From: Candidatus Pacearchaeota archaeon
GTDB lineage: Archaea > Nanobdellota > Nanobdellia > Pacearchaeales > JAPDKA01
Assembly (NCBI GenBank): GCA_038840695.1
Contig: JAWBVE010000001.1
Location: forward strand, 108,896-172,895
Length of the DNA stretch: 64,000 nt
Direction of reading: 5' to 3'
Shown: piece by piece, positions 55,828 through 58,740 of the stretch
Numbering within the stretch: the stretch's first letter is position 1
How the letters are laid out: each line of letters begins with the position of its first letter
Translations under genes and position numbers: made by a program
The notes under the pieces: model-generated
Database searches by the model: none
Told to the model about the DNA's origin: nothing
What the model saw: the letters and a program-made list of their open reading frames with translations, nothing else

Positions 55828-58740
55828 ATGACTTACATAAAAAAGCTCGTTATAGAAGGTTTTAAAAGTTTTGGGAAAAGAACAGAAATTATTTTCGATA
55901 AGGGCCTGAATGTTATTGTTGGACCAAATGGAAGTGGAAAGAGTAATATAATTGATGCAATTTGCTTTGTACTAGGACGACTAGCAATGAAAAGTTTGCG
56001 TGTTGAAAGTGCAAAAAATTTAATTTTTAAAGGAAGTAAAGCTTTAGCCAGTGCAAACAATGCAATTATTTCTATGACAATTGACAATTCCCAAGGTTTA
56101 TTAAAAATAGAAAATGAGATCCCAAATGAAGTTACTATAACGAGAATTCTTAGAAGTGATGGCTCTAGTATTTATAAAATAAACAATAAGCCAAAAACAA
56201 GAAATGAAGTTCTTGAACTTCTTTCACAAGCAGGAATAAATCCATATGGCTTTAATTTGGTTTTGCAGAAAGAAATTTCTAGGTTTGTTGAAATGAAAAA
56301 TGAAGAAAGACGTAAATTAATAGAGGATATAGCTGGAATAAGTGTTTACGAAGAAAGAAAAGAAAAAGCATTAAGAGAACTTGAAAAGACAGAAGAAAAA
56401 ATTAAAGAAATTAAAGCTATACTTAATGAGAAAGAGCACTTTTTGAGAGAACTTGAGGCTGAAAGAAAACAAGCACTTTTTTATAATCAAATAAAAGAAC
56501 AAGTTGAAAATTTAAAATTTTCCATAATAGCAAAAAAGCATGCCGAAAAAAGTGCTGAAAAAGCCAAAATTGAGAGTGCTTTGCAAAAAGAGTTATCAAG
56601 AAAAGCGACAAATGAAGCTAAGCAGAAAAAAATCCAAGAGCTAAAGGAACAAATAAAAAATAAAATAAATTTAATAGATTCTCACATAGAAAATCTTTCT
56701 GGTGTTGAGCTAAAAGAATTACAGAATAGCATAGTTGAAGGAAAAGCACAGCTTGCGAAGCTCGAAATAAGGCGAAATTCTTTGCAAGCTCAGGTTTTAT
56801 CAGCTAATGAAAAAATAAAAAATCTAAATGAAGAAATTGAACTTGGCTTAAAAGAGCTAGAAGAGCTTAAAGAAAAACAGAAGCAATCGTTTAAAGACAA
56901 AAAGAAAGAGAAAATTTTTAGTGGTATTGATAGAAAAATAGATGAAGCGAAAAGGAGATATGATTATTTAAGCAAAAGATTAGGTGAAATAGAAAATGCT
57001 GCTAATCAGCTTTCTCTCGCCAAAGAGAGGCTCTCTTTTGCAAATAAAAATTATCTAGCTGTATGTGATGAAATTGCAAAAAAACAAGAGGCTTTGAATA
57101 ATCTTAGAGCAAAGATTGTGAGCATCGAGGAAAATATCGATGATAAAATTAAAGCGTTAAGCAAAAAGATCAGTGAAAATGATGCATTAATAAAGAAGAG
57201 TGAGGTTGAAATAGCTGCATTTGAAAAAGAAATTGAGCTTGCAACGACCGAGCTTAATGAGCTAGTTAACTTGCAAATATGCCCAAAATGTAAGCGCGTT
57301 CTTGATGATGAGCACAAAAAAAAGCTTGAGGCTGAGGCTAATGAAAAAATTAAAGACATAAGATCGAAGATAAAAGTCATTTTGCTTGAGATTGATAAAC
57401 TTAAGAATGAAAATTCTATATTGATTAAAGAAATTGAGAGATATAAAAAAGAGAAGGAAAAAGAGCTAGAAAATAGAATTATTAATGAGAAGATTAAAGA
57501 GCTAAGAAGTGCTATTGAAACCTTGATAGTTCAGAAAAAAGAGCTTTCTGCAAAGCTTGAAGAGCTAAATAGGCAAATTCCTGAGTTAGAAGCAAGTATA
57601 AATGCCCGCGAGCTCGTCGAGACTGAGCTCAATGAAGTGAAAGCAAGGCTTAATACTTATTTGCTTGAAAAAGAAAAAGTTAAAAAAGAAATGGATGTTG
57701 ATAAACAGCTTACTTTAGAGGTTGAGCTTAAAGAGCGAGAGTTAGAAAATGCAAGAGATGTTCTTGCAAGAACTGAGAAAGAGAAAGCAAAGGCTGAAGA
57801 AAATTTGAAAAGTATAGAGGCTGAAATTCAGGAAATTACTAAGTTGTTAGAAGAGAGACAAAGCAAGCATGATGAAATTTATAAAAAATTTTCTAGCCTT
57901 ATAGAGGAAAAAAATTCTTTACAGCAAAAAAATTCAGAGCTTGAGTCGCAGCTTTCATCTTTGCAAGGCGAGCTTTTTGTTATCATGAGCAAAATAAATG
58001 AACTTAATGTTAATAAGGCAAGAGTCGAGGCTGAACTCAAAGCTCTTGATGATGAAATCAATGCACTAGGCAAAAAAACTAAGGTAATTCGTTTGCCAAT
58101 TGAAAGGCTTGAGGAAAAGTTAAGGAGAGCGCAAGCGAGGCTTGAGCAAATAGGCAATGTTAATCTTTTAGCTCTTGAAACTTATGAAAAAATAAAGTCA
58201 GAATGGAATGAAGTTAACGCTAAGCTTGAAAAGATAATTAAAGAAAAAGAAGAAATATTAAAGCAAATCGAGAGAATAAATAAAGAAAAGAAGAAAGTTT
58301 TTATGGCAATATTTGATAAAATAAATGCTCAATTTAGTGAAAATTTTATGAAGCTGAATTGGAAAGGTGGAATAGCCAAGCTTGTGCTTGAAAATGAAAA
58401 AGATCCTTTCGCAGGCGGCGTAGACATTTTGTTGCAAGTTGGGAAAGGAAAATATTTTGATTCAACAAGCTTAAGTGGAGGTGAAAAGGCTTTAACAGCT
58501 TTAGCCTTTATTTTTGCTATTCAACAACTTAGCCCTTATCCTTTTTATGTCTTTGATGAAATAGATTCTGATCTTGATAAACATAATAGTGAGCGAGTAG
58601 CAAATTTGCTTAAGGCACATATAGGAAAACATCAATGTATAATTATAAGTCATAATGATGCGACAATAAGCAAGGCAGATCTAATTTACGGTGTCTCAAT
58701 GCAGGATGGAGTAAGCAAAGTTATAAGTTTAAAGTTGTAA
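55828..58740 (+). CDS. smc: SMC-family ATPase with a central CPxC hook instead of a hinge
   Basis: 970 aa. SMC-type heads (GFKSFGK...[50 protein letters not shown]). Continuous coiled coil between them, with CPKC at codons 485-488. Confidence 0.8.
   Translation: [970 protein letters not shown]

Follow-up and report, generated by a model that had tools for sequence, protein, structure and literature searches.

Introduction

Can an SMC protein do without its hinge? According to a 2023 review, SMC proteins dimerize via a hinge and Rad50 via a zinc hook (PMC10586767), the latter being a structure in which the CxxC pairs of two chains coordinate one zinc ion (PDB 1l8d). The question is raised by a gene in a 64,000-nucleotide stretch of DNA from Candidatus Pacearchaeota archaeon (assembly GCA_038840695.1, contig JAWBVE010000001.1, positions 108,896 to 172,895 of the forward strand), which we refer to as the window. 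An open reading frame (ORF) at nucleotides (nt) 55828..58740 on the + strand, with an ATG start and a stop codon at 58738-58740, encodes a protein of 970 amino acids (aa). The initial annotation, made from the sequence alone, had proposed a hybrid in which SMC heads are joined by a Rad50-type hook rather than by a hinge. Our results support that architecture with respect to the heads, the missing hinge, and the homology of the hook, and they refine it: the protein is not a one-off but a member of a conserved family, and a second such family exists. We conclude that it is probably the organism's SMC (condensin-type) ATPase, with a Rad50-type zinc hook substituted in situ for the hinge.

Heads and arms of an SMC protein

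The ORF listing and the translation bore out the reading frame and the motifs that had been placed in it. The source is a metagenome-assembled genome (MAG), so that a truncated or chimeric SMC gene produced by assembly or gene calling might be suspected. This explanation has a negligible probability and is refuted by the occurrence of an identical 970-aa protein on six independent contigs, including one from GCA_038818895.1, where NCBI labels it 'chromosome segregation SMC family protein [Candidatus Pacearchaeota archaeon]'. Furthermore, this architecture recurs, within a narrow range of 942-1022 aa, in hundreds of homologues drawn from NCBI, JGI, ENA, and Logan assemblies.

The ATP-binding cassette (ABC) head is split between the N and C termini and retains the complete motif set of Walker A, Q-loop, LSGGE, Walker B, D-loop, and H-loop. 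The N-terminal half (aa 1-170, nt 55828..56337; like all features of this gene, on the + strand) matches SMC_N at 2.8e-38 and the Pyrococcus Smc head 5xei at 5e-102, and its translation includes the Walker A motif GPNGSGKS (nt 55921-55944). The C-terminal half (aa 821-970, nt 58288..58737) matches SMC_N at 4.5e-29 and the Smc head 5xns at 6e-92, with the LSGGE signature at nt 58471-58485 and Walker B plus D-loop at nt 58543-58578 in its translation. Searched as a whole, the protein matches the Pfam SMC_N model at 7e-57. In an alignment of 105 homologues, the catalytic residues K38, Q147 (Q-loop), S883-G-G-E886, D910, E911, D913, and H942 (H-loop) are invariant, as is R58.

An ordinary Rad50/SbcC break-repair ATPase with merely SMC-like heads would account for a CPxC motif at the coiled-coil apex, for the match to the Rad50 zinc-hook model PF04423 described below, and for weak matches to NCBIfam Rad50 models. 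The heads make such an identity very improbable. The best NCBIfam model was SMC_prok_A (TIGR02169; 2e-161, 539.2 bits), which aligned residues 3-475 of the query to positions 1-464 of the model, and SMC_prok_B (TIGR02168) scored 4e-149 (498.4 bits), whereas no Rad50 model exceeded 101 bits (4e-29) against cut-offs of 700-1087. The RecN model reached 3e-10. Rad50 heads in the PDB were matched at 5e-12, compared with the 5e-102 and 6e-92 obtained for Pyrococcus Smc. A full-length AlphaFold2 model, for which the 105 homologues served as input, had a mean predicted local distance difference test (pLDDT) score of 82.5 and consisted of a globular head with long helical arms. When this model was searched with Foldseek, condensin Smc4 and Pyrococcus Smc came out on top (4i99, target-normalized template modeling [TM] score of 0.92), and Rad50 first appeared at rank 14. 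In addition, a phylogeny of the heads nests the family beside hinge-bearing SMCs, in agreement with the initial view of the heads as SMC-style, and a gene for Mre11 (Metallophos) was found neither among the scanned ORFs of the window nor in the flanks of the related loci inspected. With SMC models and Smc heads scoring so far above Rad50, we rejected a Rad50 orthologue; the heads and arms belong to a genuine SMC.

We also considered the ASRP proteins (ClsN/coalescin, Sph1/2), which resemble our protein in that they are archaeal SMC-superfamily ATPases with an apex zinc hook, but which are ~590 aa long, with short arms and divergent heads (PMC9389158). Membership in this group was rejected, given a length of 970 aa and a score of 116 bits (2e-33) against a cut-off of 300 for the ASRP model NF045487, which matched the C-terminal part only.

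Loss of the hinge

At a threshold as loose as E<=10, the hinge model PF06470 found nothing in Pfam scans of the full-length protein and of its pieces, and the AlphaFold2 model shows near-continuous helix where a hinge would lie. This is not a problem of sensitivity, because the hinge-bearing relatives P0142, P0143, P0145, and P0149, three of which come from the sister clade, match the same model at 1e-30 to 1e-32. A divergent hinge was rejected on these grounds. In the model, the ascending coiled-coil arm (aa 171-479, nt 56338..57264) and the descending arm (aa 494-820, nt 57307..58287) run antiparallel with ~310 residues per strand. Their helices, at 171-479 and 494-843, are almost unbroken, with short interruptions at aa 211-225, 353-357, and 429-436 on the ascending side and at ~aa 592-593, 621-625, 747-757, and 774-781 on the descending side.

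What the hinge was exchanged for can be read from an alignment of the hook-family hidden Markov model (HMM) to 27 SMCs that bear a hinge, most of them members of the sister clade. The arms line up with those of canonical SMCs as far as model positions ~465-478 and again from ~496, and a hinge with a median of 198 residues in the canonical proteins corresponds to a median of 26 positions in the hook family. Collinear arms combined with this exchange therefore indicate a clean swap, in which the hinge went out, the hook came in, and the arms kept approximately their full length.

A Rad50-type zinc hook at the apex

The sole nonhelical stretch between the arms is an apex loop of 14 residues (aa 480-493, nt 57265..57306). 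It contains C485-P-K-C488 (nt 57280-57291), which lies, as the initial annotation had noted, at the midpoint of the 970-aa chain, where the coiled coil folds back. The Rad50 zinc-hook model PF04423 matches aa 469-514 (nt 57232..57369). The query yields E-values of 3.2e-4 when searched in full and of 4e-5 to 4.7e-5 (23.5-23.8 bits) when searched as fragments, and 35 of 40 diverse family members match the model, the best at 3.3e-10.

A resemblance to archaeal Rad50 hooks had been suggested at first, and profile comparison substantiates it. A profile of the apex (aa 435-540) matched the Pyrococcus furiosus Rad50 hooks 6zff (2.6e-11) and 1l8d (5.6e-11) over ~105 columns, with CPxC and the subsequent T-x-E-H in register. 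The P. furiosus hook reads CPVCGRELTDEH in this alignment, resembling the 12-residue CPKC stretch of the query. Next came the first unrelated coiled coil at 3.3e-4 and, practically level with it, human RAD50 (5gox) at 3.4e-4. The apex fragment, modeled with AlphaFold2 (pLDDT 93.7), is predicted as a helical hairpin that has CPKC in its loop, and its top PDB match in Foldseek was the Rad50 zinc hook 1l8d, with a TM score of 0.72-0.76 and a root mean square deviation of ~3 Å. Judged by these profiles, the apex is demonstrably homologous to the Rad50 zinc hook over ~100 residues.

C485 and C488 are invariant among the 105 aligned homologues, down to 35% identity, and P486 is conserved in at least 90% of them, while the arms otherwise hold almost no invariant position. 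The protein has five cysteines in total, and the invariance of these two at that level of divergence shows that the motif is not a product of chance. One might still regard CPxC as a structural turn or an intramolecular metal site, with dimerization achieved through heads or arms only, or not at all. Relatives that lack CPxC persist in both hook families described below, and hinge-less SMCs without CXXC are known from marine Actinobacteria (PMC12153180). We consider this reading improbable. Four cysteines are needed for the zinc site, and with just two conserved cysteines per chain it needs two chains; an intramolecular site is unlikely. Moreover, the hook to which the apex is related over ~100 residues shares its zinc between chains, and conservation this strict argues for a demanding function.

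We propose the following mechanism for an SMC with a hook in place of its hinge. Each polypeptide would fold back on itself, bringing its two head halves together into an SMC ABC ATPase, with the antiparallel coiled-coil arm connecting this head to the apex loop. The apex loops of two protomers would then coordinate a single Zn2+ through their four cysteines, yielding a constitutive homodimer, which is the usual job of the hinge. ATP would still drive the heads to engage and disengage, and the chromosome would be organized and segregated by this complex. We infer zinc binding and dimerization at the hook from the two cysteines conserved in each chain and from the homology to 1l8d, and we likewise infer a chromosome-organizing activity of the loop-extrusion type and the existence of a kleisin partner.

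Conservation and distribution of the family

A database search returned 7922 relatives, from which we inspected the best 120 clusters. Their members are ~950-975 aa long and come from genomes named Pacearchaeota, Nanoarchaeota, or simply 'archaeon'. CxxC was present in 118 of these clusters (117 with CPxC, one with CFIC), at 0.45-0.52 of the length; the remaining two are a short form and an intein-bearing form. Similarly, a scan of GTDB species-representative genomes with the full-length family alignment revealed relatives encoded in at least 545 stretches. We inspected the best 80 loci, and each of them has CPxC at ~aa 480 of an ORF within the range of 942-1022 aa. Apart from two contigs that are probably mis-binned, they belong to MAGs that bear the names Woesearchaeota, Pacearchaeota, Nanoarchaeota, or Nanoarchaeia. 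When cluster representatives (50% identity) were searched exhaustively and ranked by score, ~24 hook-type clusters scored 485-626 bits, followed by a sharp step to <=409 for hinge-bearing SMCs, which are mostly 1100-1190 aa. The motif, which had been noted in a single protein, is thus conserved among its orthologues: the hook-bearing SMC is a large conserved family in Nanoarchaeota, in genomes named Pacearchaeota or Woesearchaeota, and not a one-off hybrid. Current database labels for its members are 'SMC family protein' or 'AAA family ATPase'.

The two probably mis-binned contigs (JBAZBJ010000017.1, locus L036, and DATKUW010000087.1, locus L060) carry a typical archaeal hook-bearing SMC in MAGs labeled Parcubacteria and Bacillota. 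Two other contigs, from one Woesearchaeota MAG, carry identical copies of the locus (L065 and L066), which looks like assembly redundancy. We also observed inteins with LAGLIDADG homing endonucleases that split Walker A (GPNGSGK|C...), resulting in proteins of 1480-1700 aa. Carriers include members of the first hook family (P0100, P0135, P0138), members of the second family (P0306, P0276), and hinge-bearing SMCs of Woesearchaeota (P0422, P0430, P0448, and others).

Probable replacement within an orthologous gene

To place the family, we used a neighbor-joining tree of the heads only (377 columns, 166 sequences, 200 bootstraps). In this tree, which puts the protein among SMCs and not within Rad50/SbcC, 37 hook-bearing sequences and five short derivatives form one clade (194/200 bootstraps), and the sister group consists of 36 hinge-bearing SMCs. 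The named hinge-bearing relatives include P0152 and P0157 from Woesearchaeota, both in the sister group, and P0143 from Nanoarchaeia. Among the close relatives that bear a hinge, some have much shorter arms: P0142 (943 aa, hinge at aa 407-524), P0149 (963 aa), and P0177, P0194, P0209, P0212, and P0216 (~810-840 aa). These are natural 'mini-SMCs' and are relevant to ideas about the tuning of arm length.

The genomic position of the gene is also informative. The two neighbors named in the initial annotation were confirmed: the gene for RNase HII (rnhB; 54960..55760, + strand, PF01351) is directly upstream and that for GatD is downstream. The surroundings are of a housekeeping kind rather than a defense island. 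RNase HII is encoded upstream on the same strand, immediately or closely, at 61 of 78 related hook loci, and it is also upstream of the hinge-bearing Woesearchaeota SMC P0157 (locus L091). The linkage of rnhB and smc may reflect a functional or transcriptional link. Because the hook clade is sister to hinge-bearing SMCs and the rnhB-smc position is shared, we favor replacement of the hinge by the hook within an orthologous gene over the addition of an extra paralogue.

A paralogue with a separate role, e.g., in repair, in the formation of ClsN-like compartments, or in defense, would coexist with a canonical SMC that has a hinge and whose gene lies in another part of the genome. Hinge- and hook-bearing SMCs do occur in MAGs that share the same coarse NCBI names, Woesearchaeota and Nanoarchaeota; other hook-bearing SMC-like proteins, such as ASRP/ClsN and LmuB, are specialized (PMC9389158, PMC10586767); and no kleisin gene was found nearby, either among the scanned window ORFs or in the flanks of related loci. 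We nevertheless view a paralogue as unlikely. Hook-bearing SMCs branch as the direct sister group of hinge-bearing ones and have kept full-length arms and all ATPase motifs, the position next to rnhB is common to hook genes and at least one hinge-bearing gene, and the neighborhood is not that of a defense island. In addition, the 120 hook clusters and the 120 hinge clusters shared no contig of equal length, even though nine hook contigs are longer than 300 kb; this test is weak.

A second hook family and hookless derivatives

From the distant sequence P0243 we reached a second hook-bearing family (P0243 and P0274-P0392), with proteins of ~985-1015 aa from genomes named Diapherotrites, Iainarchaeum, Micrarchaeota, and archaeon GW2011_AR10; loci that represent it are L089 (10001-14617) and L090 (10001-13009). 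CPxC occurs in 112 of 120 members, at ~0.49 of the length, and none of the 120 has a hinge. The apex profile of this family matched the Rad50 hooks 1l8d (2.4e-13) and 6zff (1.6e-12), the next match being at 0.025, and the apex profiles of the two hook families match each other with an hhalign probability of 97%.

In a 195-sequence head tree, built by a crude method and with hinge-bearing sequences sampled by similarity to the first family, the first family was monophyletic in 194/200 bootstraps and the second in 200/200, and the two were never grouped together (0/200). The mean head distance between the families is 1.19, compared with distances to hinge-bearing SMCs of 0.95 for the first family and 1.11 for the second. 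Because the hook families never group and their mutual distance exceeds that to hinge-bearing SMCs, the head sequences suggest two independent swaps, and the replacement of hinge by hook has probably arisen more than once.

Some relatives have neither hinge nor hook. Within the first hook clade, short SMCs of 779-804 aa (P0270, P0133, P0069, P0137, P0140, and P0141; e.g., the P0270/P0133 loci L087 6279-8693 and L088 6069-8483) lack both the hinge and CPxC, and P0133 and P0140 have one cysteine each in the entire protein. The tips of both arms are missing, at approximately family-model positions 420-565. Full-length identity among these proteins is 41-49%, they occupy the same rnhB-linked position, and the head-only neighbor-joining tree does not recover them as one group (0/200). 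Derivatives without CPxC, of 924-957 aa, exist in the second family as well. A fuller scenario, in which a Rad50-derived hook replaced the hinge at least twice in DPANN archaea (in Nanoarchaeota and in Diapherotrites/Micrarchaeota) and some descendants then lost the hook, is one that we put forward tentatively, at somewhat less than even odds.

Partner genes and points against the proposed swap

In the 30 window ORFs scanned with Pfam (models including PF02616 and PF04079), no gene for ScpA, ScpB, Mre11, or Rad50 was found, which accords with the earlier statement that mre11, scpA, and scpB are not adjacent to the gene. When the neighbors of 78 hook loci were clustered, no conserved kleisin-like neighbor emerged. 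Several ORFs examined in the search for partners gave no support for a kleisin. Two adjacent ORFs on the - strand beside the RFC subunit genes (11837-12544, 235 aa; 12548-13210, 220 aa) had no Pfam or PDB match, a conserved ORF upstream of second-family genes encodes a membrane protein, and an unannotated ORF downstream of a hinge-bearing SMC had no PDB match. Archaea can often dispense with ScpB, and their scpA gene does not always lie next to smc (PMC7055376).

A number of observations weigh against the view that the protein is the organism's SMC with a hook in place of its hinge. The query alone scores 20.9-23.8 bits on PF04423, slightly below the gathering cut-off of 24.3. The Foldseek E-value of the apex is weak (0.015, nonsignificant) because helical hairpins are common, and the fold match is supporting evidence only. 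A search for a kleisin gene (ScpA) found none in the window or the flanking regions of 80 related loci, nor beside second-family genes. The linkage to rnhB was seen at only one of the three hinge-bearing loci examined, and the shared-contig comparison is a weak test of whether a genome with the hook protein lacks a further SMC that has a hinge. Finally, hookless relatives at the same genomic position imply that some lineages can do without a zinc link at the apex.

Known systems and implications

Compared with canonical Smc (Smc-ScpA/Smc-ScpAB), the archaeal hook protein is alike in head sequence and fold, ATPase motifs, length and collinearity of the arms, and sister-group phylogeny. It differs in that PF06470 is missing, the chain is ~200 aa shorter, the scores are below the equivalog cut-offs of both SMC models (539.2 versus 729.4 bits for TIGR02169 and 498.4 versus 567.35 for TIGR02168), and no ScpA was located in the window or flanks. 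With Rad50/SbcC it shares the CPxC zinc hook at the apex, but its heads are not of the Rad50 type and no Mre11 gene is adjacent. The 'hinge-less' SMC of marine Actinobacteria (Sussfeld et al. 2025, PMC12153180) likewise combines genuine SMC heads and arms without a hinge, but it is bacterial and explicitly lacks CXXC; the hookless archaeal derivatives of 779-804 aa are its closer analogue.

The nearest precedent is man-made. In the engineered Bacillus subtilis Smc(Zh) (Buermann et al. 2017, PMC5344682), SMC heads and full-length arms are joined by a Rad50-type CPxC hook, as in the archaeal protein. This chimera, in which the P. furiosus Rad50 hook takes the place of the hinge, is functional and supports growth (PMC5344682; restated in bioRxiv 10.1101/495820), so the design of a hook-bearing SMC can work. 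Whereas the engineered protein needed particular arm lengths, the archaeal family is natural and conserved, with a narrow length of ~951-975 aa. The converse swap, Rad50 with a MukB hinge, works in fission yeast (PMC6969161). Such exchanges counted as notable feats of engineering (PMC5344682, PMC6969161). Given the engineered precedent, the architecture comes across as plausible rather than startling.

Hooks go unmentioned in surveys of archaeal SMC evolution (PMC8665677; bioRxiv 10.1101/2024.01.07.573240), and in at least one of them DPANN SMCs are classed as canonical archaeal SMC with no comment on the hinge (PMC8665677). Our full-text literature searches, with subscription journals outside their coverage, found no description of a natural hook-bearing SMC. 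A natural SMC with a Rad50-type hook instead of a hinge thus appears to be new, the architecture being known from engineering only.

How the hinge contributes to DNA loading, DNA binding, and obstacle bypass remains under debate (bioRxiv 10.1101/495820; PMC12647877), and a natural swap of hinge for hook is an evolutionary experiment on what the hinge is not needed for. If swaps have indeed occurred repeatedly, whole archaeal lineages would organize their chromosomes with hinge-free SMC complexes, the hinge and any DNA-gate or DNA-binding role ascribed to it would not be intrinsic to SMC function, and the 'hinge versus hook' boundary between SMC and Rad50 would be blurred by domain exchange. 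The family offers ready sequences for biochemistry, with arm lengths that are naturally tuned, and it raises the question of which proteins are the partners of a minimal DPANN SMC complex. It also calls for caution in annotation and phylogenomics, given that hook-bearing SMCs carry generic labels.

Other features of the window

Upstream of the rnhB-smc pair, the window contains two very large ORFs on the + strand, at 42109-47277 (1722 aa) and 47876-50944 (1022 aa). In the latter, a DUF2341 domain is accompanied by a signal-like segment at the N terminus and a membrane anchor at the C terminus. Both are probably giant surface proteins of the kind that is common in DPANN genomes. A DnaG-type (Toprim) primase at 52252-53670 (+) carries, before its C-terminal part, a long low-complexity insertion rich in Lys and Glu, with short repeats such as KEQGKEQGKEQ and KTAEKTAEK.

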